NCBI GenBank assembly: GCA_965277805.1
Contig: OZ255842.1
Location: forward strand, 4,320,001 to 4,384,000
DNA length: 64,000 nucleotides
DNA from: Candidatus Lustribacter sp.
Lineage (GTDB): Bacteria > Vulcanimicrobiota > Vulcanimicrobiia > Vulcanimicrobiales > Vulcanimicrobiaceae
Direction: 5' to 3'
A model generated the notes under the pieces. The model searched no databases and had not been told where the DNA came from. It saw only the letters and a list, made by a program, of their open reading frames with translations. Position numbers and translations under genes: made by a program. Below are positions 7,584 through 56,489 of the stretch, piece by piece (within the stretch, counting starts at the first letter, position 1; each line of letters opens with the position of its first letter).

Positions 7584-8905
7584 TGCGCGTTCGTCCGGGC
7601 GCGTGGCTCGGACCGCGCGCAATCGCGCCCGCGCTCGCGCTCTCGATCGCGGCGGGGCTGCTCGCGCGCACGTATCCATGGGCACCGGTCGTCGCCGTGC
7701 TGGCGGCGGCGTTCGTTCTCGCCTGCGTGCTGGATGCGCGCGCCAGCAGCGGGATGTTGCGCTGGCGGCGGATCGCACCCGAACGTTACGCGCTCGCGCG
7801 CGCCGATGCGTTTCGCTACGAGCTGGAAAATCACGCGACGCTGCCGCTGCGCGTCGGGATCGTGGAAGCGCCGGTGGCGAAGCTCGCCGTCGCGCTCGCT
7901 CCGGCGCAGGTGCTGGTTCCCGCGCGCAGCCGCACCGTCGCCGAAGTGGCGTTCGTGCCGCGCGAACGCGGCCGGACGGCGCTCGGCGATTCGTACGCCT
8001 GGTATGAATCGTCGTTCGGTTTGGTGCGTCACCGCGTGCGGCTCGCCGGAGCGCAGCCGATCCGCGTGCTGCCGGATTTGAGCGCCCTCGACGGCTCGGA
8101 AGATCTCGCGCTGCGCGCGCGTTTGATCGACGCCGGATTACGGCGCCTGCGGCGGCGCGGCGCCGGTACGGAATTCGAGAGCTTGCGCGAGTACGGTACG
8201 GGCGATGCGTTTCGCGACATCGATTGGAAAGCGACCGCGCGCCGCGGCCGCGTGATGGTCGCGCAGCACGAAGTCGAACGCAGCCAGCAAGTGATCGTGG
8301 CGATCGATGCCGGGCGCCTGATGGCGGCGCGGCTCGGCGACCGGCGCAAGCTCGACTATGCGGTGTCGGCAGCGCTGGGCATCGCGGCGCTCGCGCGGCG
8401 CGCCGCCGATCGCGTCGGGGTACACGCGTTCGCCGGACGCACGCTCGCCGCCGTCGCGCCGGCGAACGGCAACGCGCAAGCCGCCGCAATCGTCGAAGCG
8501 CTGGCCGACATCGAACCGCAAGCCGAAGAGTCCGATTACGAACGCGCGGCGCTCACGTTGCGCACGAGCTATCGCAAGCGCAGCCTGGTCGTGGTGTTCA
8601 CCGATCTCTTCGATCCGGTCGCCTCGGCGACGGTGCTGGCGGCATTGGCGCTGCTCGTGCGCACGCATCTGGTGCTCGTCGCGCTGGTGAACGACGCCGC
8701 GATCGCCGACGCGCTGGCCGCCGAACCGCTCGATGCGAACGCCGCCTATCGTGCCGCCGTCGCGACCGCGCTCGCGGCCGAACGCGCGCGCGCCGTGGCG
8801 AAATTGCGCGCGACCGGCATGCTCGTCGTCGACGTTCCCGCGCGCGACCTGCGCTTGGCGCTGCTGGACGCCTACCTGGATATCAAGACGCGCGGTTTGT
8901 TGTAG
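7583..8905 (+). CDS. DUF58 domain protein (VWA-like MoxR partner)
   Basis: ATG overlaps the moxR TGA; EFESLREYGTGDAFRDIDWKATARRG, IDAGRLM, VVVFTDL. Confidence 0.9.
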   Translation: MRVRPGAWLGPRAIAPALALSIAAGLLARTYPWAPVVAVLAAAFVLACVLDARASSGMLRWRRIAPERYALARADAFRYELENHATLPLRVGIVEAPVAKLAVALAPAQVLVPARSRTVAEVAFVPRERGRTALGDSYAWYESSFGLVRHRVRLAGAQPIRVLPDLSALDGSEDLALRARLIDAGLRRLRRRGAGTEFESLREYGTGDAFRDIDWKATARRGRVMVAQHEVERSQQVIVAIDAGRLMAARLGDRRKLDYAVSAALGIAALARRAADRVGVHAFAGRTLAAVAPANGNAQAAAIVEALADIEPQAEESDYERAALTLRTSYRKRSLVVVFTDLFDPVASATVLAALALLVRTHLVLVALVNDAAIADALAAEPLDANAAYRAAVATALAAERARAVAKLRATGMLVVDVPARDLRLALLDAYLDIKTRGLL

Positions 8906-9881
8906 TGGATTCATGTTCCGTGAATCCAGCGCGGCCGGCGAAGCCGAAATACGCGCAGAGTGCGACGGCGGTGAGTGCGCCGATTGCGAAGCGGACCTCG
9001 GGCGTGAAGCGTTGCGGCGAGATGAAGCCTTCGATGAGGCCGGCGACCACGAGCATGCCCGCGACGCCGAGCATCAGCACGACCGCGCGCGCACCGTTGG
9101 CGGCGAGCGCATCGATGCGCCGCGCGCGTCCCGGCCGGACGTAACCGGCGGCGAGAACCAGGCCCGCACCGCCGGCGATCTGGATCGCCGTGAGCTCGAT
9201 GACGCCGTGCGGCGCGATCGTGGCCCACAGGTCCGTGCCGAAGCCGTGGTTTGCGAACAGCGCCGCGACCGTGCCGAGATCGAGCCCGTTGAACCCGACG
9301 ATCAAGAGCGTGATGATGCCGGCCGTGATGCCGCCGGCAAACGCGATCGCCGCGACCTTGATGTTGTTGGTGATGATCAGCGCCGACATTGCGGGCGCGT
9401 AGATGCGGTCGAAGCCGAAGTTCGTATCGTGCAGGCTGCCGCTGATCGACGGCACCGCAGACGGCGGCACGAAAGCGTAGGCGTTGGCCGGATCGGCACT
9501 GGTCGCGACGTAGGCGATCGCGCCCGCCACGAGCGAGAGCAGCGCGCACAGCGCGATCGCTGTCCACGAACGACGCACCTCGCGCGGAAACGATGTCGTG
9601 AAGAGCGCGACCGCGTTCGACCAGCCGCCGGCGGTCGTGCCGGCGTAGACGCGCGCGTGGGCGCGCGCGACCAGGCGGTTGAGATAACCGATCGTGCCGG
9701 CGTCGTAGCCCCGCGCGCGAGCCATGGCCAGATCGCTCGTGGCGGCTCGGTAGCCGAGGGCTAAGGCGTCGAGCTCGGCCGCGTTCAAGCGCCGCAGACC
9801 CGTGCGGTCGGCGCGCGCGAGCAGCTCTTCGAGTTCGCCCCAGCGTGGGCGGCCGGCGTCAACGAAGCGCGCTTCGCGCAT
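8883..9881 (-). CDS. SpoIIM-family (stage II sporulation protein M-like) membrane protein
   Basis: YRAATSDLAMAR, IITNNIKVA, IAPHGVIELTAIQIAGGAG, AGLIEGFISP; start 9881 or 9890. Confidence 0.88.
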   Translation of the reverse strand: MREARFVDAGRPRWGELEELLARADRTGLRRLNAAELDALALGYRAATSDLAMARARGYDAGTIGYLNRLVARAHARVYAGTTAGGWSNAVALFTTSFPREVRRSWTAIALCALLSLVAGAIAYVATSADPANAYAFVPPSAVPSISGSLHDTNFGFDRIYAPAMSALIITNNIKVAAIAFAGGITAGIITLLIVGFNGLDLGTVAALFANHGFGTDLWATIAPHGVIELTAIQIAGGAGLVLAAGYVRPGRARRIDALAANGARAVVLMLGVAGMLVVAGLIEGFISPQRFTPEVRFAIGALTAVALCAYFGFAGRAGFTEHESTTTNRAS

Positions 9882-47478: not shown

Positions 47479-48444
47479 ATGATGTCGAATCGTTTGACGC
47501 GTCGAGATGCACTCGTTGGTGCCGGCGCCGCAGCGGCAACGCTGGCGCTGCGTGCCCCCGCACTTGCGGAACCGGTGGTCCTGCACGTGTCGACCGTTGC
47601 GATCTTCGGCGCCGCGCCGTTCTATGCGGCCGACGCACAAGGCTATTTCACCGCCGAGAATCTCGCGGTGACGACCGATCCGGTGCAATCCGGAGCGGTC
47701 GGTGTGCCGGCGCTGGCAGTCGGCCAATTCGACATTCTCTATGCGAACACGGTTTCGACGATTACGGCGATCGACAAAGGGATCGACCTGCGCGTCGTCT
47801 TCGGCGGCGGCACGAACGGCAGCAAACCGCCGGGAAACTCGGCGTTGATGAAACGCCGCGGCGATGCGATCAAGACCGGCAAAGACCTCGAGGGCAAAAC
47901 GGTCGGCGTCAACGGCGTGAACGGCATCAATTGGGTGCTCACGCGATCGTGGGTGAAGATGACCGGCGGCGACCCCGACAAAGTGAAGTTTCTCGAACTC
48001 CCGAATCCCGCGCTAGTCGCGGCGATCAAAGCCGATCGCATTGACGCAGCGTACGTCGTCGACCCGTTCATGACGACCGGCTCGCAAGACCCCGCGATCG
48101 AGAGCTTCGCCTGGCCGCAGAGTTCGGTGTTCGCCGGCGGCCAGAACGGGCTGTGGGTCGTGATGGGTCAGACGATCGCGCAGCGTCCGGAACTCGTCCG
48201 CGCATTCAATCGGGCGATGCGCAAAGGCGTCGCTTGGATCAATGCCAACCTCGGCAACGACAGCTACCTCAAGCTCGTGGCCGGCTTCACCAAAATCGAT
48301 GCGACGCTGTTGGCGAAGATGGCGATGGTGCCGTTCGGGACGACCGTCACGGCGGCGCAGATCCAGCCGATGGTGAAGCTGATGCGCGAAAACGGTCTGC
48401 TCGCGGCCGACGTCGATCTTCGCCCTAAAATATTCGCCGGCTAG
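47479..48444 (+). CDS. ABC substrate-binding protein (NMT1/SsuA-like) with Tat signal
   Basis: TRRDALVG signal, DLEGKTVGVNG, RIDAA..VDPF; AAGGAG SD upstream. Confidence 0.87.
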   Translation: MMSNRLTRRDALVGAGAAAATLALRAPALAEPVVLHVSTVAIFGAAPFYAADAQGYFTAENLAVTTDPVQSGAVGVPALAVGQFDILYANTVSTITAIDKGIDLRVVFGGGTNGSKPPGNSALMKRRGDAIKTGKDLEGKTVGVNGVNGINWVLTRSWVKMTGGDPDKVKFLELPNPALVAAIKADRIDAAYVVDPFMTTGSQDPAIESFAWPQSSVFAGGQNGLWVVMGQTIAQRPELVRAFNRAMRKGVAWINANLGNDSYLKLVAGFTKIDATLLAKMAMVPFGTTVTAAQIQPMVKLMRENGLLAADVDLRPKIFAG

Positions 48445-51400
48445 TGAAAATTGCGCGAGCGGACCTTGTCGGTCGTGCCGGATGTATCGAAATGCCAGCA
48501 GCGCTTCATGATCACATCGATCGCGCCCGACTCTTTCTGTAACACGCCCTCGACGATCAGACATTGGGAAGCGCGGATCGTGCGGCGGTACTTCTCGTAG
48601 ATGTCCGGCTTCACGATCACGTTGACGAGGCCCGTCTCGTCCTCGATGGTGAGGAACACGAAGCCTTTCGCCGTGCCCGGACGCTGACGCGTGATCACGA
48701 GACCGCCGATCTTGCACACCAGGTTCTTGGGCATCGCCGGCAAGCGTCCGGCCGCGAGCACGTGGCGCGCATTGAGTTCGGCGCGGAAGTGCGCGATCGG
48801 CTGCACGTCGGCGACGCCCGTCGCGGCGATGTCGAGCGCGGTGCGTTCGATTGCGCTGAGCGCAAGCAGCTGCGGCGGCGGCTCGTCGTCGATCTCCATC
48901 GCACGCCCCAGTTCGCCGCGTGCTTCGCGTTCGTTCAGCGCGCGCAACGCCCAGATCGCATCGCGCCGCGCCGGATACCACGGCGCGAAGGCCCCGCCCG
49001 CGGCGAGGTTCTCGAGCGGCTCGCGGGCCAGCTGCGTGCGGCGCGTGAAGTCGAGCAGATCCTCGAACGGGCGGCGTTCGTTCAGCGCGCGCTCGACGTG
49101 CTCGCGTTGCGCCTCGCCCATGCCGCGTACGAGGTGAAAGCCCAAGCGCAATGCGCCGTCGGGTTCGACGAAGCTCCACCACTCGCTGGCGTTCACCTCG
49201 ACCGGCCGCACGACGACGCCGTGCCGGCGCGCGTCGTTCACCAGCACTTCGGTTGAATAGAAGCCCATCGGCTGCACGTTGAGGATCGCGGCGCAAAAGA
49301 TCGCCGGCTCGTGGCACTTCACGTACGCCGATGCGTAAGCGAGCAGCGCGAAGCTCGCCGCGTGCGATTCGGGAAAGCCGTAGTCGGCGAAGCCTTCGAG
49401 CATGTGAAAGAGCCGCTCGGCCACCTCGCGCTCGATGCCGTTGCTCACCATCCCGTTCACCAAGCGCGGATAGATGTCGGCCATCCGGTCGCGCGAACGC
49501 TTGTGGCCCATCGCGCGGCGTAACTCGTCGGCCTCGCCGCCCGAAAACCCAGCAGTCTCCATCGCCATCCGCATCCCTTGCTCTTGAAACAGCGGCACGC
49601 CGAGCGTGCGCTCGAGAATCGGTTTGAGCGAGGGATGCGGATACGTCACTGGTTCCATGCCGTTGCGCCGGCGCAGGAACGGATGGATCATGTCGCCCTG
49701 AATCGGGCCCGGGCGAATGATCGCGACCTGCATGACGATGTCGTAGAAACACTTCGGCCGCAAGCGCGGCAGCATCGATTGCTGCGCGCGCGACTCGACT
49801 TGGAAGACGCCGATCGAATCGGCATTACACAGCATCTCGTAGGTGGGTTTGTCGTCGATCGGGATCGTCTCGAGCGAGAGCGGCTGGCGCTCGGGATAAC
49901 GGCGCGTATGCAGCGCGAACGCATCGCGCAGGAGTGAGAGCATGCCCAGGCCCAGCAGATCGATCTTGATCAGTCCGAGGTCGCTCAGATCGTCCTTGTC
50001 CCACTGCACGATCGTGCGGTCGCGCATCGTAGCCCACTCGATCGGCGCGACGTTCATCAACGGATCGCGCGTGATGATCATGCCGCCGGAGTGGATGCCC
50101 ATGTGACGCGGAAAGCCGTTGATGCGCCGGCACAGCGCGAGCAAGAGCGCGCCGGTTTCGCCGCCGATCGCGCCGCGCAGCCCCGATACGATCACCGGCG
50201 TGCGCGTGTCGTCGATCGCGCCGAAGCCGGGGGCGACGGGCGTGCCGCGTGAGGGCACGATGTTGCTGCCGGAGTCGAAGTCGCGCCGCCGTTCCACCGA
50301 TGCCGGCAGCGCTTTTGCCATCGCCGGCGGTGCGACGCCGACCGTTTCAGCCAAGGATTCCGTTGCATCGTACTCGCGCACGATTTGATCGACTTGGCCG
50401 AGCGAAAGCCCGAGCGCCTTGCCGACGTCGCGAATCGCCGAGCGCGTGCGATACGTGATGACCTCGGCCACCATCGCGGCGTGGTGGCGGCCGTAGCGGT
50501 TGTAGACGTACTGCAGCACTTGCTCGCGATCTTGATGCGCGAAATCGATGTCGATGTCGGGGATCTCGTTGCGCTCTTCGCTCAAGAAACGCTCGAAGAG
50601 CAAATCGCCGGCGATCGGATCGACCGCCGTGATCCCGAGCGCGTAACACACCGCCGAATTGGCCGCCGAACCGCGGCCTTGGCCGAGCACCCCGAGCGCA
50701 CGGGCCTCGCGCGAGATGTCCCACACGACGAGAAAGTAGCCCGAGAGATCCATGCGCGCGATGATGCCGAGCTCGTATTCGAGTTGCCGCTCGACCTTCG
50801 ATGAAAACGGCCAGCCGTAGCGTTTGCGCGCGCCTTCGTAGACGAGGGTGCGCAAGTAGGAGTGATGGCTCGTCTCGCCGTCGGGAACCGGAAAGTACGG
50901 AAACTGTCCGGCGAGTTTTTCGAGCCGGAACGTGCAGCGTTCGGTGATCGCGAGCGTATTGGCAAGCGCGAGCGGATAGGCATGAAAGAGCCGCGCCATC
51001 TGCTCCGGCGTCTTGAGCACGTATTCCGCATTCGGGCGCAACAGCGTGCCGGCAGTCGCTAAGGTGGATTTGTATTTCACGCAGGTGAGCACGTCGCACA
51101 GTCGTGCGTCCTCGCGATCGACGTAGGCGACGCCGTTGGTGGCGACGTACGGCACGTCGAGCTTTCCGGCGAGTGCCACCAGTGCTTGCACGAGCGCGCC
51201 GTCCTCGGGCCGTAAGTGATGCTGCAGTTCGAGATAGAAGCGGCCGGGGAAGAGATCGCGCAAGCGCGCGCCGATCGCGAACGCGCCGTCGTCGTCGCGG
51301 GCGAGCAGGGCTTTCTCAACGAGGCCGTTCGCGCCGCCGGAGAGCGCGATGATGCCGTCGGTACGGCCGGTAAAATCGTCGAGCCGCGCGCGCGCGTCGC

Positions 51401-51779
51401 GCTTGCGTCCGCGCAATTGCGCGAGCGAGATCAATTCGCACAGGTTGGCGTAACCGCGCGCGTTTTCGGCGAGTAGGACGATCCGCGGCGTATGCGTCGG
51501 CACCTCGCTCGCCGCTCGCGCGGGGCGGCTGGGCCGGATCGGTTCCGGGTCGGCCGTCTCGAGCGTTAACTCGGCACCGCAAACGGCGGGCAGCTTTCGC
51601 TCTTTGGCCGCTTTCGCGAATCGCACGGCGCCGTAGAGCCCGTCACGATCGGTCAGCGCGATCCCGGCGAGGCCCGCCGCCACGGCCGCGCCGACGAGTT
51701 CTTCCGGGTGCGAGGAGCCCTCGAGAAACGTAAAGTTCGACCAGGCGTGGAGTTCGGCGTAGCGCGGAGCGGCAGCCAT
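48441..51779 (-). CDS. dnaE2: Error-prone DNA polymerase DnaE2 (ImuC)
   Basis: YAELHAWSNFTFLEG PHP domain, GRGSAANS, PDIDIDF, YGFPESHAASF, QPMGFY, RQRPGTAKG OB fold, C-terminal SRNFH. Confidence 0.96.
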   Translation of the reverse strand: MAAAPRYAELHAWSNFTFLEGSSHPEELVGAAVAAGLAGIALTDRDGLYGAVRFAKAAKERKLPAVCGAELTLETADPEPIRPSRPARAASEVPTHTPRIVLLAENARGYANLCELISLAQLRGRKRDARARLDDFTGRTDGIIALSGGANGLVEKALLARDDDGAFAIGARLRDLFPGRFYLELQHHLRPEDGALVQALVALAGKLDVPYVATNGVAYVDREDARLCDVLTCVKYKSTLATAGTLLRPNAEYVLKTPEQMARLFHAYPLALANTLAITERCTFRLEKLAGQFPYFPVPDGETSHHSYLRTLVYEGARKRYGWPFSSKVERQLEYELGIIARMDLSGYFLVVWDISREARALGVLGQGRGSAANSAVCYALGITAVDPIAGDLLFERFLSEERNEIPDIDIDFAHQDREQVLQYVYNRYGRHHAAMVAEVITYRTRSAIRDVGKALGLSLGQVDQIVREYDATESLAETVGVAPPAMAKALPASVERRRDFDSGSNIVPSRGTPVAPGFGAIDDTRTPVIVSGLRGAIGGETGALLLALCRRINGFPRHMGIHSGGMIITRDPLMNVAPIEWATMRDRTIVQWDKDDLSDLGLIKIDLLGLGMLSLLRDAFALHTRRYPERQPLSLETIPIDDKPTYEMLCNADSIGVFQVESRAQQSMLPRLRPKCFYDIVMQVAIIRPGPIQGDMIHPFLRRRNGMEPVTYPHPSLKPILERTLGVPLFQEQGMRMAMETAGFSGGEADELRRAMGHKRSRDRMADIYPRLVNGMVSNGIEREVAERLFHMLEGFADYGFPESHAASFALLAYASAYVKCHEPAIFCAAILNVQPMGFYSTEVLVNDARRHGVVVRPVEVNASEWWSFVEPDGALRLGFHLVRGMGEAQREHVERALNERRPFEDLLDFTRRTQLAREPLENLAAGGAFAPWYPARRDAIWALRALNEREARGELGRAMEIDDEPPPQLLALSAIERTALDIAATGVADVQPIAHFRAELNARHVLAAGRLPAMPKNLVCKIGGLVITRQRPGTAKGFVFLTIEDETGLVNVIVKPDIYEKYRRTIRASQCLIVEGVLQKESGAIDVIMKRCWHFDTSGTTDKVRSRNFH

Positions 51780-51787
51780 GGGCCGCT

Positions 51788-51816
51788 ATCGTAATCGAAC
51801 ATACGTTCGATAACAA
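51788..51816 (-). promoter_or_regulatory. dnaE2 promoter with LexA (SOS) box TCGAAC-ATAC-GTTCGA at 51795-51810
   Basis: On the minus strand: TTGTTA, 17-bp spacer, TACGAT, 8 nt, ATG. The spacer is filled by an exact match to the Actinobacteria/Firmicutes-type SOS box. Confidence 0.88.
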
Positions 51817-51831
51817 GAGGAATGTCGCTTG

Positions 51832-51892
51832 TATTGACATGTTCCGACATATCGGATAATGTCGGATCTATCAATATGATTCGATATATCGA
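51832..51892 (+). promoter_or_regulatory. PadR-gene promoter with palindromic candidate operators
   Basis: TTGACA at 51834, 17-bp spacer, TAATGT; CCGACATATCGG at 51844-51855 and perfect TCGATATATCGA at 51881-51892; TCCGACAT/ATGTCGGA inverted repeat. Confidence 0.7.
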
Positions 51893-51914
51893 CACAAACC
51901 CGGAGGAACACCCC

Positions 51915-52505
51915 ATGGTCGACTGGCAGAGCGAGTTCGGCAGACACTTCGGCAAGGCCCAAGCCAAGGCCGGAAAGGTCTTCCGCAAAGCGGGCGGACC
52001 GTTCGGCGAGTTCAACGAGCGCCAGCAGATGCATCAGCGTCGCGGCGGCCGCCGCCCGTTCGGCGAATCCGAGCGCGGCAGCATCAAGTACGACATCCTC
52101 GAGATCCTGTGGGACGGCCCGCGCCACGGCTACGATCTCATGCTCACGATTGAAGAGAAGCGCGGCTTCCGCCCGAGCCCGGGCTCGATCTACCCCGCGC
52201 TGCAAATGCTCGAAGAGGGCGACTTCCTCACCGGGCAAGACATCGACGGCAAGCGCGTCTACACGATCACCGAAAAGGGCAGCGAGATGCTCGCCAAGCA
52301 CCGCGAGACCACGCCCGCGGACGAGGCATCGCCCGACTTCAAAGGCGCGGTATCGCTGATCACGCGCGGCATGCACACGATGATGGGCGTCAAGATGGTG
52401 CTAAAGGAAATCGGCCGAACGCGGAACGTCGAAATGTACACGCAGGCCCTGGCGATTCTCGAGCGAACGCGCCGCGATCTCTACGCGTTGCTGACACACG
52501 AATAG
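51915..52505 (+). CDS. PadR family transcriptional regulator
   Basis: GPRHGYDLM...PSPGSIYPALQMLEE...KRVYTITEKG; GGAGG SD upstream. Confidence 0.93.
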   Translation: MVDWQSEFGRHFGKAQAKAGKVFRKAGGPFGEFNERQQMHQRRGGRRPFGESERGSIKYDILEILWDGPRHGYDLMLTIEEKRGFRPSPGSIYPALQMLEEGDFLTGQDIDGKRVYTITEKGSEMLAKHRETTPADEASPDFKGAVSLITRGMHTMMGVKMVLKEIGRTRNVEMYTQALAILERTRRDLYALLTHE

Positions 52506-54023
52506 ATGAGCGCAACGACGCTGGCGGTCGCGCCTGCTCCGGCACGTCCGGCCGCCTCGCCGTACCTGATTTCACTAACGGTCATGCTCGGCATGATCAT
52601 GGCGATCGTCGACGGCACGGTCGTCAACGTCGGGCTGAATACGATCGCCGGCACGCTGGGCGCATCGCTCGACGATGCGGCGTGGGTCGTCACCGGTTAT
52701 CTGCTCGCGAGCGTCATCACCATGCCGCTCAACGGCTGGCTCACCGCGAAATTCGGCCGTAAGCGCTTCTACGCCGGCTGCGTTGCGATCTTCACGATCG
52801 CTTCGTTTTTGTGCGGTACGGCGACGACCGTCTGGCAACTGACGTTCTACCGCATTCTGCAAGGCTTCGGCGGGGGCGCGCTGCAGCCGACCGCGCAAGC
52901 GATCATCTTCGAAACGTTTCCGCCCGGCAAACGCGGCATGGCGACGGCGATCTTCGGCATCGGCGCGATGGTCGGTCCGGCGCTCGGGCCGCTGATCGGC
53001 GGCTACATCATCGACAACGCCACCTGGCCGCTGTTGTTTTTGGTGAACATCCCGATCGGCATCGCGGCGTTCTTCATGACGGTCGCGTTCATCCCCGATC
53101 CCACGTATCTCGAGAAGCCCAAGGGCGGCATCGATTGGCTCGGACTCGGGTTGCTCTCGGCCGGTGTCGGCGCGATTCAGTACGTGCTCGAGCGCGGCCA
53201 GCACGATGATTGGTACGACTCGCCCACGATCGTCATTCTCACGGTGGTGTCGGTTGCGGCGAGCGCGTGGTTCATTTACAAGTCGCTGAATGATAAGCAT
53301 CCGCTGGTCGATCTGCGCTCGTTCCGGTTCCCGACGTTCGTGTTCGGCAATTTGCTGCTCGTCGTCGTCGGTTTCGGACTCTACGGCACCTCGCTGATCA
53401 TGCCGCTCTTCTTTCAAACGTCGATGGGCATGACCGCATACGACACGGGCTTGGCGTTGCTGCCGGGCGCGATTGCAACGGCGGCGTCGATGATTGTCGT
53501 CGGCCGTTTGATGCAAGTCGTCGACCCGCGCATTCTCACCGCCGTCGGCCTCGTGCTCTCCGCGTGGTCGTGCTGGGCGCTTGGGGATCTCAATCAATAT
53601 GCCGGTGTCGGCGACATCTTTTGGCCGCGCATCATCCAAGGCTTCGGCATGGGCCTGATGTTCGTGCCGGTAACGACCGTGATGCTCTCGCCGCTGCCGA
53701 AGAACGAACTCGCAAGCGCGACGGGCATCTCGATGCTGGTGCGCCAGCTCGGCGCGAGCGTCGGCATTGCGGTGCTGACGACGCTGCTCGCGAGCGAAAC
53801 GACCGTCGCCTGGATGGCCCTCGCCGGCGGCGTGACGCAGAACCACGGCGCCTCGGTCGGCCAGATCAACGGCCTGCTCGTGCAGTCGGCCACCGTGATC
53901 GCCTACGATTACCTCTTCCGAATCTGCGCCTTCGTCTTCTTGTTCGCCCTGGTCTTCGTCTTCTTCATGAAACCGAACAAAGCAGCCGCCGGAGCCGCCC
54001 CTGCTATGGCACCGGCCGAGTAG
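52506..54023 (+). CDS. EmrB/QacA-type DHA2 efflux permease
   Basis: DGTVVNVGL, WVVTGYLLA, GPALGPLIGG, FLVNIPIG, LERGQHDDW. Confidence 0.92.
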   Translation: MSATTLAVAPAPARPAASPYLISLTVMLGMIMAIVDGTVVNVGLNTIAGTLGASLDDAAWVVTGYLLASVITMPLNGWLTAKFGRKRFYAGCVAIFTIASFLCGTATTVWQLTFYRILQGFGGGALQPTAQAIIFETFPPGKRGMATAIFGIGAMVGPALGPLIGGYIIDNATWPLLFLVNIPIGIAAFFMTVAFIPDPTYLEKPKGGIDWLGLGLLSAGVGAIQYVLERGQHDDWYDSPTIVILTVVSVAASAWFIYKSLNDKHPLVDLRSFRFPTFVFGNLLLVVVGFGLYGTSLIMPLFFQTSMGMTAYDTGLALLPGAIATAASMIVVGRLMQVVDPRILTAVGLVLSAWSCWALGDLNQYAGVGDIFWPRIIQGFGMGLMFVPVTTVMLSPLPKNELASATGISMLVRQLGASVGIAVLTTLLASETTVAWMALAGGVTQNHGASVGQINGLLVQSATVIAYDYLFRICAFVFLFALVFVFFMKPNKAAAGAAPAMAPAE

Positions 54024-54034
54024 ACGTTCCCCGT

Positions 54035-54059
54035 TGTCATCCCGAGCTTGTCCAGGGAC
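54035..54059. repeat. REP-like element TGTCATCCCGAGCTTGTCCAGGGAC
   Basis: Shares TGTCATCCCGA with 3874-3884; weak TCCC/GGGA stem; lies just after a stop codon. Confidence 0.4.
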
Positions 54060-54092
54060 CGCCGCAATCACCGTCGCTGAGCTCGGAAATAA

Positions 54093-54138
54093 AATAGTAT
54101 CATAAATGTAGCCTCAAGGGTACGATTGTGATACTATT
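54093..54138. promoter_or_regulatory. 22-bp imperfect inverted repeat (operator) over the promoter of the wHTH-NTase pair
   Basis: AATAGTATCATAAATGTAGCCT-ca-AGGGTACGATTGTGATACTATT; 18/22 positions pair; -10-like TACGAT and TACTAT lie within the right arm. Confidence 0.8.
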
Positions 54139-54146
54139 GACGAGCG

Positions 54147-54467
54147 ATGGATCTCTTCGGCTCCCGCGCCCGCAGCCGTATTTTGCTCTATCTAGCCCTG
54201 GCTGAGGAAAGCTATGTGGCGGAGATGGTCACTGTCCTTGGATATCCGAAATTGACCATCCAGCGGATCACCCGGGACCTCGAGGAGTTAGGGGTTGTGG
54301 CTTCGCGCGTACGCGGTCGCGTTCGATTCGTCTCGCTCGATAAGACGTGGTTCGCAGCCGCTGAACTACGCGCCCTTTTGCAGCGCTTGTCCACAGCGGA
54401 TCCCGACATTTTAGATGCCGCTGCGTCCGTACGCCGCCGTCCGCGCCGGCCCGGTAAACCATTATGA
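54147..54467 (+). CDS. Winged-helix DNA-binding protein, putative antitoxin/autorepressor
   Basis: LFGSRARSRILLYL...TIQRITRDLEELGVVASRVRGRVRFVSL wHTH pattern; basic tail RRRPRRPGKPL. Confidence 0.75.
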   Translation: MDLFGSRARSRILLYLALAEESYVAEMVTVLGYPKLTIQRITRDLEELGVVASRVRGRVRFVSLDKTWFAAAELRALLQRLSTADPDILDAAASVRRRPRRPGKPL

Positions 54468-55027
54468 ACCTCACGAACGCCTCGACGCTCATCGACGTTG
54501 CTTTTGCCGTTTGCACGGCGCTGGCTCGAGCGAGTGCCGTGGGCGTACTCACCGGTGGAAGCGCCGCGACATATTACGTTCCCGAGCGTTATCAGTCGCT
54601 GGACGTCGACTTTGTCTTGCGTGTCGTGCCGCAGAAGGGCGCCATCGACGAAGCCATGGGTAGCCTCGGATACCATCGCGCTCCAACGGGAATGTACGAG
54701 CACTCTGATATCCCGATAACCGTGGAGTTTCCGCATGGTCCGCTGAGTATTGGGCGGGACCTCATTCAGACATGGGCAACCGAACGCCGGGGTGATGAAC
54801 TATTGTATATCCTGAGCATAACGGATTGCGTACGCGATCGCTTTATGCACTTCTGGGCTTGGAACGATCGTTCAGCACTTGAGCTCGCACTCGAGATAGC
54901 TCAGCGATACAGCGAGCGATTCGACGCAGACGCTTTTCGCGCGTGGACAGCAGCGGAGCAAGTCGCAGATGCCTCGTACGCGCAAGAAAAAGTCGACGAG
55001 TTCTTTCGTCGCTTAACGGCCATATGA
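54464..55027 (+). CDS. Predicted Pol-beta-superfamily nucleotidyltransferase, putative toxin
   Basis: VLTGGSA...SLDVDFV (GG/GS...DxD) motif, downstream VEF acidic residue; ATGA overlap with the wHTH gene. Confidence 0.68.
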   Translation: MNLTNASTLIDVAFAVCTALARASAVGVLTGGSAATYYVPERYQSLDVDFVLRVVPQKGAIDEAMGSLGYHRAPTGMYEHSDIPITVEFPHGPLSIGRDLIQTWATERRGDELLYILSITDCVRDRFMHFWAWNDRSALELALEIAQRYSERFDADAFRAWTAAEQVADASYAQEKVDEFFRRLTAI

Positions 55028-55527
55028 TTCCGGATCCGGTGGCGGTTGACGCCAACGAGTTCGATGCGGAGATCGTGCGCGCAGATTATCGAGCGCATCA
55101 TCGGGTGCCGCGGCCGGGACTCGCCGTCGCCGGAGCCGGCTTTCTCGTACTTGCACTGCTCAATTGGATGCGACACTGGCCGTTCTCACATTACTGGTGG
55201 CTGCTGCTTTTTGGTGTCGCGTACATCGCAATGTCGATGCGCGCCGGGAAAGGCTTTCCGTCGGTGGTGCTTCCATCCGGCCTGCATTTTTCGGGCACGG
55301 GTATCGATCTCGATGTGCCGTTTGTAAAAGACCCGCGTCGCCATTATTCGTGGCACGGAATACGGATCGACGATATCGGCGAAGTGTTCGTGCTCGTTCC
55401 GTCGTTCGGGAAACGCGTGGTGATCCCCAAACGCTCGTTCCCCGACGGCGGACGTGAAGCATGGGCATTCTTCACCGCCAATCACGTTGCCGGAAGGACG
55501 CCACTCGCAACTCCCGTACGGGCGTAA
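55024..55527 (+). CDS. YcxB-like membrane protein
   Basis: Two TM segments, then YSW..I...FVL...VVIPKRSF; ATGA overlap with the NTase stop. Confidence 0.65.
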   Translation: MIPDPVAVDANEFDAEIVRADYRAHHRVPRPGLAVAGAGFLVLALLNWMRHWPFSHYWWLLLFGVAYIAMSMRAGKGFPSVVLPSGLHFSGTGIDLDVPFVKDPRRHYSWHGIRIDDIGEVFVLVPSFGKRVVIPKRSFPDGGREAWAFFTANHVAGRTPLATPVRA

Positions 55528-55529
55528 CG

Positions 55530-56489
55530 ATGCAGTATCGGAAGATTGGCCGCTGGGGGATGGCGGTTTCGAGCGTTGGACTTGGGTCGTGGCTCACCTA
55601 TGGCGGCAGCGTGGAAGAAGCGACGGCGCGGGCGTGTATGCGGCGGGCGTACGAGCTGGGAGTTACGTTCTTCGATACGGCCAACGTGTATGCGGGCGGT
55701 CGGGCGGAAGAAGTCGTCGGGCGCGCGATCAAAGATTTCGCGCGCGATTCGATCGTGCTCGCAACGAAAGTCTATTTTCCGATGGGCCGCGGCCCCAACG
55801 ATGCGGGCCTCTCGCGCAAGCATATCCGTATGCAGATCGACGCGAGCTTGCGGCGCTTAGATGTCGAATACGTTGACCTCTACCAGTGCCATCGCTACGA
55901 TGAGGACACGCCGCTGGACGAAACGTGCAGTGTGATGAACGATCTCGTGCGCGCCGGCAAGATTCTGTACTGGGGTGTCTCGGAATGGAGCGCCGACCAG
56001 ATTACCGCTGCCTGCACGTTGGCGCGGGAAAACGGCTGGGCGCCGCCGATCAGCAATCAGCCGCAGTACAGCGCGCTCTGGCGCCACGTGCAGCGCGACG
56101 TCTTTCCGGCCTGCCGCGAATTCGGGCTCGGCAACGTCGTGTGGTCGCCGCTCGCGCAAGGCATTCTCACCGGCAAGTATACCTCGGCGCGCACCGTGCC
56201 GCAGGGTACGCGCGCATCCTCGAACGCGGCCGGCATGATGACCGACTACTTCACGCAGCCCGTGCTCGATGCGGTGGCGCGCATCAAACCGCTGGCCGAA
56301 CGCGCCGGCTGCACGATGGCGCAACTTGCACTGGCGTGGTGCTTGCGTGACACGATCGTATCGGCGGTGATCGTCGGTGCAACGCGGCCCGAACAGGTCG
56401 ACGACAACGTTGCCGCCGCCGACCTGCAGATCGATCCGGTCATCTTCCAGCAGATGGACCAGATTCTCACGCCGGTCGCGCCGGGCTAA
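55530..56489 (+). CDS. Aldo/keto reductase (Kv-beta-like)
   Basis: GLGSWLTYG, FFDTANVY, LATKV, YVDLYQCH, WGVSEW, WSPLAQG. Confidence 0.94.
   Translation: MQYRKIGRWGMAVSSVGLGSWLTYGGSVEEATARACMRRAYELGVTFFDTANVYAGGRAEEVVGRAIKDFARDSIVLATKVYFPMGRGPNDAGLSRKHIRMQIDASLRRLDVEYVDLYQCHRYDEDTPLDETCSVMNDLVRAGKILYWGVSEWSADQITAACTLARENGWAPPISNQPQYSALWRHVQRDVFPACREFGLGNVVWSPLAQGILTGKYTSARTVPQGTRASSNAAGMMTDYFTQPVLDAVARIKPLAERAGCTMAQLALAWCLRDTIVSAVIVGATRPEQVDDNVAAADLQIDPVIFQQMDQILTPVAPG

Follow-up and report, generated by a model that had tools for sequence, protein, structure and literature searches.

Coupled winged-helix and nucleotidyltransferase genes in Candidatus Lustribacter: a candidate toxin-antitoxin-like family related in logic to MenAT and AbiE

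Two small overlapping genes in Candidatus Lustribacter sp. (GenBank assembly GCA_965277805.1, contig OZ255842.1, positions 4,320,001 to 4,384,000 of the forward strand) raise the question of whether a minimal winged helix-turn-helix (wHTH) protein and a nucleotidyltransferase (NTase) make up a toxin-antitoxin module, and if so, of which kind. This stretch of 64,000 nucleotides is called the window below, and coordinates are given within it. A sequence-only reading had proposed that the genes at 54093..55027 form an AbiE-like, type IV toxin-antitoxin or defence module. NTase toxins such as AbiEii and MenT form a class, understood only recently, that modifies the ends of tRNAs and so blocks translation; they are paired with a variety of antitoxins, and the ways in which these neutralise the toxins are still being worked out. 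The wHTH-NTase module was found to be real, strongly conserved, and of an undescribed family. The evidence leans, on balance, towards an autoregulated toxin-antitoxin-like family of NTases that is related to MenAT and AbiE in its logic, without being a member of either, while an anti-phage role is unsupported. The module comprises the following features.

54093..54138, no strand: imperfect palindrome of the form 22-2-22 (18/22), presumed operator of the wHTH repressor, overlapping the promoter
54129..54137, + strand: extended -10-like TGaTACTAT in the right arm of the palindrome, 9 nt before the ATG, read by eye
54147..54467, + strand: wHTH gene, 106 aa; winged helix (residues 7-64), helices 71-82 and 86-96, and a disordered basic tail; presumed repressor/antitoxin
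54432..54464, + strand: codons of the tail RRRPRRPGKPL (residues 96-106), where conservation within the wHTH family is highest
54464..55027, + strand: NTase gene, 187 aa; Pol-beta NTase domain followed by a four-helix C-terminal domain; presumed toxin
54554..54610, + strand: NTase catalytic motifs, G31-G32-S33, 13 residues, then S45-L-D47-V-D49

The nucleotidyltransferase and its relatives

The 106-aa and 187-aa open reading frames (ORFs) lie on the + strand and share an ATGA overlap, as originally described. The 187-aa NTase matched none of the Pfam, NCBIfam or PADLOC models, and comparison with the sequences of the PDB (phmmer and a 76-sequence profile) returned 5uvd alone, with an E value of 0.043. 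A word-seeded search recovered 524 homologs, all annotated as 'hypothetical' and none with Pfam domains, of which the named ones came from Eremiobacterota/Vulcanimicrobiota; an exhaustive search yielded 688 clusters at 50% identity, with E values up to 0.001. An AlphaFold (AF2) model computed from a 47-row alignment (predicted local distance difference test, pLDDT, 95.3; predicted template modelling score, pTM, 0.90) consists of an alpha/beta NTase domain and, C-terminal to it, four helices. All good structural matches of this model in VIA were Pol-beta-type NTases, with which Foldseek agreed, and the NTase assignment made from the GGS...DxD motif is thereby upheld. The VIA matches included 5uvd (Z 12.0), MenT1 (11.7; rmsd 4.6, 171 residues aligned), ANT(2'')-Ia (11.2), JHP933 (9.9), TglT/MenT3 (9.7), LnuA (9.6), MenT4 (9.4), and TM1012 (9.1), and the Foldseek search that had been suggested for this protein led to MenAT1 (8an5_B, TMq 0.57). 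With matches within 1 Z unit treated as tied, MenT1, ANT(2'')-Ia, and 5uvd, a fungal NTase-like protein, are tied as the nearest structures, so the fold cannot separate toxin NTases from antibiotic NTases.

The catalytic motif was found to be strictly conserved in most lineages. Both G31-G32-S33 and D47-V-D49 are invariant in 47/47 close homologs, as are S45, D121, R124, D125, and D135. Across 76 wide relatives, D49, G69, and R126 are invariant, followed by G31 and S/T45 (75/76 each), E/D88 (74), D125 (73), D135 (72), and D47 (71/76). E88 is the presumed third metal-binding carboxylate of the NTase. Three apparent wHTH-NTase fusions (P0224, P0246, and P0320; 286-298 aa) were rejected; their N-terminal parts are low-complexity, Arg/Pro-rich, and out-of-frame-looking, and they probably arose as artefacts of ORF calling or of frameshifts in GC-rich contigs.

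Weak Pfam matches among the 76 relatives were scattered over DUF2204 (PF09970; 15 relatives, best E 5.2e-6), NTP_transf_5 (PF14907; 9, best E 6.3e-4), DUF6036 (PF19502; 2, best E 0.016), Aminoglyc_resit (PF10706; 3, E 0.014 or weaker), and PF08843 (1, E 0.059). Three AbiEii models of PADLOC were each matched by 3/76 relatives, with a best E value of 8.6e-4, and DUF2204 or DUF6036 was present in 15% of the members of the NTase's atlas neighbours. These scattered matches place the family within the NTase clan beside uncharacterised families, and not within DUF1814. The proposed AbiE-like identity was therefore not borne out at the level of either protein: the NTase gave no PF08843/DUF1814 match at E values up to 1, and its partner proved to be ArsR/SmtB-like and to lack the C-terminal domain of AbiEi (see below).

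The winged-helix partner, its operator and the predicted complex

The AF2 model of the 106-aa partner (pLDDT 90.0) contains a winged helix, two helices, and a disordered 10-residue tail. The closest folds of residues 1-86 in VIA were HlyU (Z 11.0, rmsd 2.5, 80 residues aligned), AntR (10.6), and SmtB (10.5), and Foldseek returned SqrR/SmtB/CzrA with TMq values of ~0.6. Sequence models pointed in the same direction, all below their cut-offs: NF033788 (HTH_metalloreg) scored 25.5 bits against a cut-off of 55 (E 8.2e-6), MarR_2 22.4 against 27, and HTH_5 13.6 against 22. AbiEi (6y8q) was absent among the 50 best fold matches. In the modelled structures, then, the partner is an ArsR/SmtB-type wHTH and not AbiEi, and the description of it as nothing more than a wHTH with a short basic tail was accurate: the 106 residues are accounted for by the wHTH, two helices, and the tail, and leave no AbiEi C-terminal domain. 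The same short form was found in 45 NTase-linked and 80 tail-seeded homologs. A comparison with PADLOC, which had also been proposed, gave no model for the NTase and no AbiEi match for the wHTH, whose matches were confined to the wHTH portions of Csa3, CARF, and PDC-M05A (in the last case the N-terminal part, E 6.8e-5).

The basic tail is the most strongly maintained part of the wHTH. In a first, word-seeded alignment, R96-R97-R98-P99-R100-R101 was invariant down to 34% identity. Because that alignment was word-seeded, the count was repeated on 45 wHTHs that had been reached only through their NTase neighbour, and a core of R-x-R-P-R-R-x-x-K-x-[LIV]-stop was recovered, with RPRR present in 43/45. 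The count was anchored on a profile, as a plain regular expression is inflated by Arg-rich alternative frames of GC-rich DNA. All six Arg codons occur at every Arg position of the tail, indicating that selection acts on the peptide rather than on the RNA, and plasmid copies of the wHTH carry variants of the same motif. Basic peptides of this sort have known counterparts in AT-hook-like minor-groove binding, in the MuA-type basic C-terminal ClpX signal, and in active-site plugs. By these analogies, the tail might plug the acidic NTase or act as its pseudosubstrate, might clamp the AT-rich operator centre through the minor groove or the phosphates, or might be a protease degron.

An inverted repeat upstream of the wHTH gene had been described, and its geometry was confirmed: the 22-nt arms (54093-54114 and 54117-54138) are complementary at 18/22 positions (82%), are separated by a 2-nt spacer, and end 8 nt before the ATG. 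Its score was reached by 0/200 mononucleotide shuffles of the 70 nt upstream. The accompanying claim of -10-like hexamers held in part. The extended -10 TGaTACTAT can be read by eye, but a sigma-70 scan that required both hexamers returned no promoter in 53900-55700. At a second locus of the same genus (L004), a related AT-rich palindrome was found, with the same TGATACTAT located 9 nt before its ATG. All 17 loci read from a second genus, g2, carry TTGACA-N3-GTnCC(n)-N7-G(G/A)ACA(A/G)T, in which a short palindrome fills a 17-nt promoter spacer and the -10 element (GACA(A/G)T) ends 7-9 nt before the start codon (17/17). Other genera have perfect palindromes of 12-16 nt, different in sequence, at the same place. 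The upstream inverted repeat was reached by at most 10 of 200 shuffles in 14/28 loci. The palindrome thus co-occurs with the pair in homologs, and its sequence is lineage-specific; a conserved position with a sequence that varies by lineage is as expected for a repressor and an operator that co-evolve. The closeness of the -10 element to the start codon suggests that the bicistronic mRNA is leaderless or nearly so.

Structure prediction of the two proteins together supports direct binding between them. The predicted complex reached an ipSAE of 0.68 (runs 0.71, 0.62, and 0.68), compared with 0.00 for all three controls; the mark applied to this score is reached by 116/157 solved complexes and by 2/215 mismatched pairs. 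Contact agreement among the runs was 100%, and the pLDDT of the partner was at least 85. In the predicted interface, wHTH residues 47-54 and 66-72 pack against NTase residues 90-100, 128-133, and 168-172. Among these NTase residues are the invariant P93, G97, A132, W133, and Y172; this side of the interface is situated between F89 and G92, both invariant, and immediately follows E88. Since the complex prediction favours direct binding, the type IV mechanism that had been proposed, in which toxin and antitoxin do not interact, appears unlikely.

These observations can be assembled into a proposed mechanism. The wHTH, probably as a dimer, would bind the palindrome lying across its own extended -10 promoter and repress a leaderless bicistronic mRNA, in which translation of the NTase would be coupled through the ATGA overlap. 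The segment after the wing (residues 66-72) would rest on the conserved FPxGPLxIG loop and on neighbouring helices beside the catalytic cleft, a contact that would hold the NTase inactive. If the wHTH were lost or titrated, the free NTase would transfer a nucleotide to a cellular target, and growth would slow. What the analysis shows is the fold and its catalytic motifs, the conserved and coupled pair, operator-like palindromes, the distribution and decay, and a predicted complex that passes its controls; repression and toxicity are inferred, as are the cellular target and the function of the invariant tail.

Distribution, decay and competing explanations

The pairing of the two genes is conserved far beyond the window. 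A wHTH gene is directly upstream in 28/29 of the best NTase loci, and 70/80 wHTH-seeded loci, obtained from a tail-pattern-seeded scan of 185,579 species genomes, have an NTase directly downstream. Among 84 intact pairs, the genes overlap by 4 nt in 68 and overlap to some extent in 74. By their record titles, the 80 seeded loci belong to Eremiobacterota, Myxococcota (isolates of Corallococcus, Myxococcus, and Pyxidicoccus), Eisenbacteria, Acidobacteriota, Armatimonadota, Nitrospiraceae, Helicobacteraceae, Gamma- and Alphaproteobacteria, Anaerolineae, Geobacteraceae/Desulfuromonas, Krumholzibacteriia, Fibrobacterota, and Spirochaetaceae. A tblastn search located the NTase on 17 plasmids, 14 of them from Leptospira and the others from Bdellovibrio, Sulfurimonas, and Sulfurospirillum, and each of the three plasmids inspected has a small overlapping gene upstream of the NTase. 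The pair is spread over more than 12 phyla and also occurs on plasmids. On the Leptospira interrogans plasmid pLiSL32 (L149; record 8456-9347), a distant pair, with an NTase 29% identical and the tail RRRPREKGKPVYART, was observed between parB and parA.

Within the phylum, the NTase was detected in 102/301 genomes with 1-3 matches each; G264 and G248, both flagged as unpublished, are included in the tally but contributed no locus to those read. The distribution is patchy, ranging from 21/59 genomes in genus g4 to 19/19 in genus g2. The flanks of the module differ between genera, and those of 29 related loci are mostly housekeeping genes, except for transposase genes (L024), an HNH endonuclease (L029), and an HTH_3 protein (L025). 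The patchy and multi-copy occurrence, the variable flanks, low GC at third codon positions (GC3), and plasmid carriage suggest accessory, mobile behaviour, which is counted in favour of a toxin-antitoxin-like family. No copy of the NTase was found among 50,697 phage records; together with the absence of a PADLOC match for the NTase and with the housekeeping neighbours, this leaves the suggested part in phage defence without support. Of the suggestion that the module represents an uncharacterised toxin-antitoxin or anti-phage family of NTases, the uncharacterised status survives, there being no Pfam, NCBIfam or PADLOC model for the NTase, and the anti-phage part is unsupported.

Further evidence comes from the pattern of gene decay. 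In 20 loci with a fragmentary NTase match, the NTase is disrupted in 19 (8 large deletions or truncations, 10 splits into two or three frames, and 1 contig-end cut), and the tail-bearing wHTH is retained in 16 of these 19. The 80 wHTH-seeded loci comprise 50 with an adjoining full-length NTase, 20 in which it is split or truncated (including 2 contig-end cuts), 1 masked, 1 with a remnant only, and 8 with an orphan wHTH and no NTase. The sole NTase without an adjacent wHTH was found at L024 (L151, G194:C7), in an operon broken by transposase insertions. At that locus, the wHTH (profile positions 3-95) is cut before the tail, a tail-like remnant follows ~700 nt on, and a DDE transposase, an apparently intact NTase, and, downstream, a second transposase of the IS4/5 type come after it. 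Decay of the NTase with persistence of the wHTH is an asymmetry that toxin-antitoxin pairs show, and offers an indirect indication that the NTase may be the harmful partner.

The immediate surroundings of the module contribute two further features.

54035..54069, + strand: core of a REP-like repeat, ~35 nt, between the MFS gene and the module; a neighbour, outside the module
55024..55527, + strand: third ORF, 167 aa, with an ATGA overlap with the NTase stop and two predicted transmembrane helices

The REP-like element that had been seen just upstream was verified. In a search of the 5.5-Mb genome with window positions 54024-54092, the ~35-nt core matched 42 further sites at 84-97% identity, several of which form close inverted pairs (for example at genome positions 1577693/1577738, 3172665/3172709, and 395510/395556), so that the repeat looks like a REP/BIME-type element (repetitive extragenic palindrome/bacterial interspersed mosaic element) of this Eremiobacterota genome. 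The third ORF, which the sequence-only reading does not mention, was considered as a part of the core module and rejected. It adjoins the pair only in this genome and in G283 of the same genus, in which 22 nt separate the two genes instead of an overlap, and any match to it was found in 6/121 family genomes; accompanying the pair in its own genus alone, it is a genus-specific add-on. An atlas score of 0.94 to 'YcxB-like' clusters, a language-model lead, describes it as YcxB-like. The window neighbours of the module are dnaE2, padR, a major facilitator superfamily (MFS) gene, an aldo-keto reductase (AKR) gene, and hydrolases. The upstream region (48441-54023) contains a gene for a DnaE2-type error-prone polymerase (- strand, 1112 aa), a PadR-like regulator (51822-52505), and a 14-TM-type (transmembrane) MFS gene (52506-54023) that begins directly after the PadR stop; these names were read from the ORF translations, and Pfam confirmed the same-genus MFS alone (L004). 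The shift towards AT-richer composition that had been reported at the module is present and modest: the GC content is 0.598 in the wHTH gene and 0.569 in the NTase gene, compared with 0.655 for the window. GC3 is 0.61-0.65 in the wHTH, the NTase, and the third ORF, and 0.79-0.85 in dnaE2, padR, the MFS gene, and the AKR gene.

Several observations weigh against a toxin-antitoxin-like family. In the structural comparisons of the model, ANT(2'')-Ia and LnuA match the NTase as well as MenT1 does. The NTase is acidic (isoelectric point, pI, 4.86; net charge -9), with a pI below 7 in 47/47 close and 59/76 wide relatives, and the wHTH is basic (pI 10.8). This is the reverse of the polarity that is usual for toxins and antitoxins, and the acidity makes the NTase a poor fit to a tRNA-binding toxin. 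Electropositive cavities for tRNA are described for MenT1 (PMC10435456). The tail, for all its conservation, lies outside the confident contacts of the predicted complex. The decay pattern has its own biases: the 20 decay loci were hand-picked for a fragmentary NTase match, the wHTH-seeded set requires an intact tail or wHTH, and many of the NTase frameshifts occur in single-contig metagenome-assembled genomes and could be sequencing errors. Finally, the pair is present in 19/19 genomes of genus g2, and in the 17 loci read there (L003, L005-L009, L011-L019, L021, and L022), aconitase (10) and/or RNase D (9) were named as neighbours wherever a flank gave a Pfam match, with neither in 2. With this universality and these recurrent flanks, the pair behaves in g2 like a core gene. 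In the same genus, E88 is replaced by Ala in 8/17 loci read, with GGS, SxDxD, and RDR retained.

The g2 loci with Ala at NTase position 88 are L006, L011, L012, L013, L015, L016, L017, and L018, and the enzymes encoded there may be attenuated or domesticated. As a whole, the g2 pattern of a universal pair, recurrent flanks, and E88A looks like domestication. Where present, aconitase is divergent on one side of the pair and RNase D (DNA_pol_A_exo1 and HRDC) is convergent on the other. RNase D trims the 3' ends of tRNAs, an activity worth noting beside a MenT-like NTase, although the genes lie on opposite strands.

The acidity of the NTase also bears on its possible substrate. A cationic acceptor would fit into an acidic cleft, and the closest candidate is the tail of the partner itself. 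It is conceivable, although doubtful, that neutralisation resides in the R-x-R-P-R-R-x-G-K-P-L-COOH tail, which would make the wHTH a new type of antitoxin; the tail would plug the acidic NTase cleft or be acted on by it, the natural acceptor being cationic instead of tRNA. With the wHTH on DNA, the tail would also grip the AT-rich operator centre, so that DNA and enzyme would compete for it and repression would be coupled to toxin load.

The alternative that survives best is a non-toxic regulatory pair, a credible reading that we nonetheless hold to be unlikely. The NTase would then act as a sensor or co-regulator: by binding the ArsR-like repressor, and perhaps by modifying that repressor or a ligand, it would tune DNA binding, and the wHTH might control further genes. 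The predicted direct binding and the acidity of the NTase agree with such a role, as do the g2 loci, where the pair is universal, sits mostly between aconitase and RNase D, and has lost E88 in about half of the loci read; the intact orphan wHTH genes (8/80) could likewise mean that the wHTH has a repressor role of its own. A regulatory pair accords poorly, however, with the strict conservation of the catalytic GGS and SxDxD in most lineages, with plasmid carriage, including the parB-parA site on the Leptospira plasmid, and with the patchy, multi-copy distribution and frequent NTase decay. The absence of a second copy of either the wHTH or the NTase from the genome of the window also counts against it, although no search for further operator sites was made there.

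An improbable but still live alternative is a small-molecule NTase of the ANT(2'')/Lnu type, acting on an antibiotic or polycation and controlled by its own ArsR-like repressor. The matches to ANT(2'')-Ia and LnuA, which have the same two-domain size, the weak matches of three relatives to PF10706, and the position of the module after a PadR-MFS efflux pair would fit such an enzyme. Acidity is a property linked to aminoglycoside enzymes, and an acidic enzyme suits cationic substrates. Yet no resistance model of Pfam or NCBIfam was matched, and the MFS neighbourhood is confined to the genus of the window. A resistance repressor would not be expected to bind the enzyme, whereas binding is predicted here, at the surface that is best conserved outside the catalytic site. 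The S/T45 retained ahead of the DxD is reminiscent of MenT, and frequent decay of the NTase with retention of the wHTH would go unexplained.

A reversed polarity as in HEPN-MNT, with a harmful Arg-tailed wHTH that is neutralised by the acidic NTase, would match the charges of the two proteins and the weak resemblance of the wHTH to PDC-M05A, but is very improbable, as a toxic wHTH would be lethal in the disrupted loci (16/19) and orphans (8/80) in which it survives intact beside a destroyed or missing NTase, and as no HEPN partner was found.

Comparison with known systems

In the literature searched, which did not include subscription journals or supplements, known AbiE and MenT papers were found and no paper described this pair. 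The pair shows several features of type II-like toxin-antitoxin systems, namely two small, co-oriented, and coupled genes, an upstream product of a DNA-binding type (a wHTH), and a promoter palindrome. Its interest lies partly in its extent, as a large family (524 proteins; 688 clusters) is left without a Pfam, NCBIfam or PADLOC model, and partly in its architecture, which joins an NTase of the size of MenT1 to the smallest wHTH partner seen so far, with a peptide tail whose conservation reaches from Eremiobacterota to Myxococcota, Spirochaetota, and Campylobacterota. Should the NTase prove toxic, the pair would bring with it an antitoxin of new architecture and, perhaps, an acceptor that is also new; if neutralisation by the tail were true, it would constitute a mechanistically new NTase toxin-antitoxin family extending over more than 12 phyla and onto plasmids. 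The family also supplies a model for the annotation of thousands of 'hypothetical' gene pairs, including those on plasmids and in cultivable myxobacteria, where the proposals are testable.

The NTase shares its fold with the solved structures of MenT1, MenT3, and MenT4, tied with non-toxin NTases. Of the known pairs, MenAT1 of Mycobacterium tuberculosis (Rv0078B/Rv0078A) resembles the present one in its gene order, with a small partner encoded ahead of an NTase of ~190 aa, in a hydroxyl residue two positions before the catalytic Asp (S45/D47 here, T39/D41 in MenT1), and in a partner that binds the NTase directly, as solved for MenAT1 and predicted here. Conserved active-site residues given in PMC11375011 include T39/D41 of MenT1 and S78 of MenT3, to which the invariant S45-x-D47-x-D49 bears a resemblance by analogy only. 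The MenAT1 antitoxin, MenA1, is described as a 68-aa helical protein without a DNA-binding domain that binds MenT1 directly (PMC10435456); according to this and a second report (PMC10435456, PMC11375011), it induces autophosphorylation of T39, and the system is not autoregulated. Here, by contrast, the partner is a 106-aa ArsR-like wHTH and the promoter carries a palindrome. The two NTases differ as well, MenT1 being a DUF1814 protein with electropositive cavities and the present NTase being acidic and matching no DUF1814 model.

The AbiE system of Streptococcus agalactiae is described as a non-interacting (type IV) system with a bicistronic arrangement of wHTH then NTase and with inverted repeats in its promoter (PMC3985639). 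AbiE and MenAT3/MenAT4 share with the present pair the wHTH-then-NTase operon, promoter inverted repeats, and the Pol-beta motifs I (hG[GS]) and II (DhD). They differ in the partner: AbiEi (COG5340, ~200 aa) has a C-terminal antitoxicity domain, which the 106-aa protein lacks. That domain (6y8q_A, chain residues 46-195) was observed to align to the NTase model with a Z score of 8.6, which hints that the antitoxicity domain of AbiEi may itself be a degenerate NTase-like fold. According to the AbiE report (PMC3985639), AbiEii has motifs I-IV, with 15 residues between motifs I and II, KLxAaxxR as motif III, and +DxxD as motif IV. The spacing is 13 residues here, and a search by eye for the DUF1814 motifs III and IV found the conserved C-terminal-domain residues T120-D121-x-x-R124-D125-R126 and D135, with no conserved Lys and no +DxxD.

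DUF2204, NTP_transf_5, and DUF6036 are the nearest sequence families when approached through relatives, although the window protein matches none of them, and no paper describing a function for DUF2204 or DUF6036 was found in the literature searched. ANT(2'')-Ia and LnuA have the same small two-domain fold and differ in that no sequence model links them to the NTase; we know of no case in which these enzymes are bound by a coupled wHTH partner. PDC-M05 is described as combining an NTase with a HEPN protein (PMC12988326), and no HEPN partner was found by Pfam in the three ORFs or in the flanks of the 29 loci. The wHTH, for its part, shares its winged-helix fold with the ArsR/SmtB repressors HlyU, SmtB, CzrA, and SqrR, and is distinguished from them by two features that occur together here, the conserved R-x-R-P-R-R-x-G-K-P-L tail and the translational coupling to an NTase.

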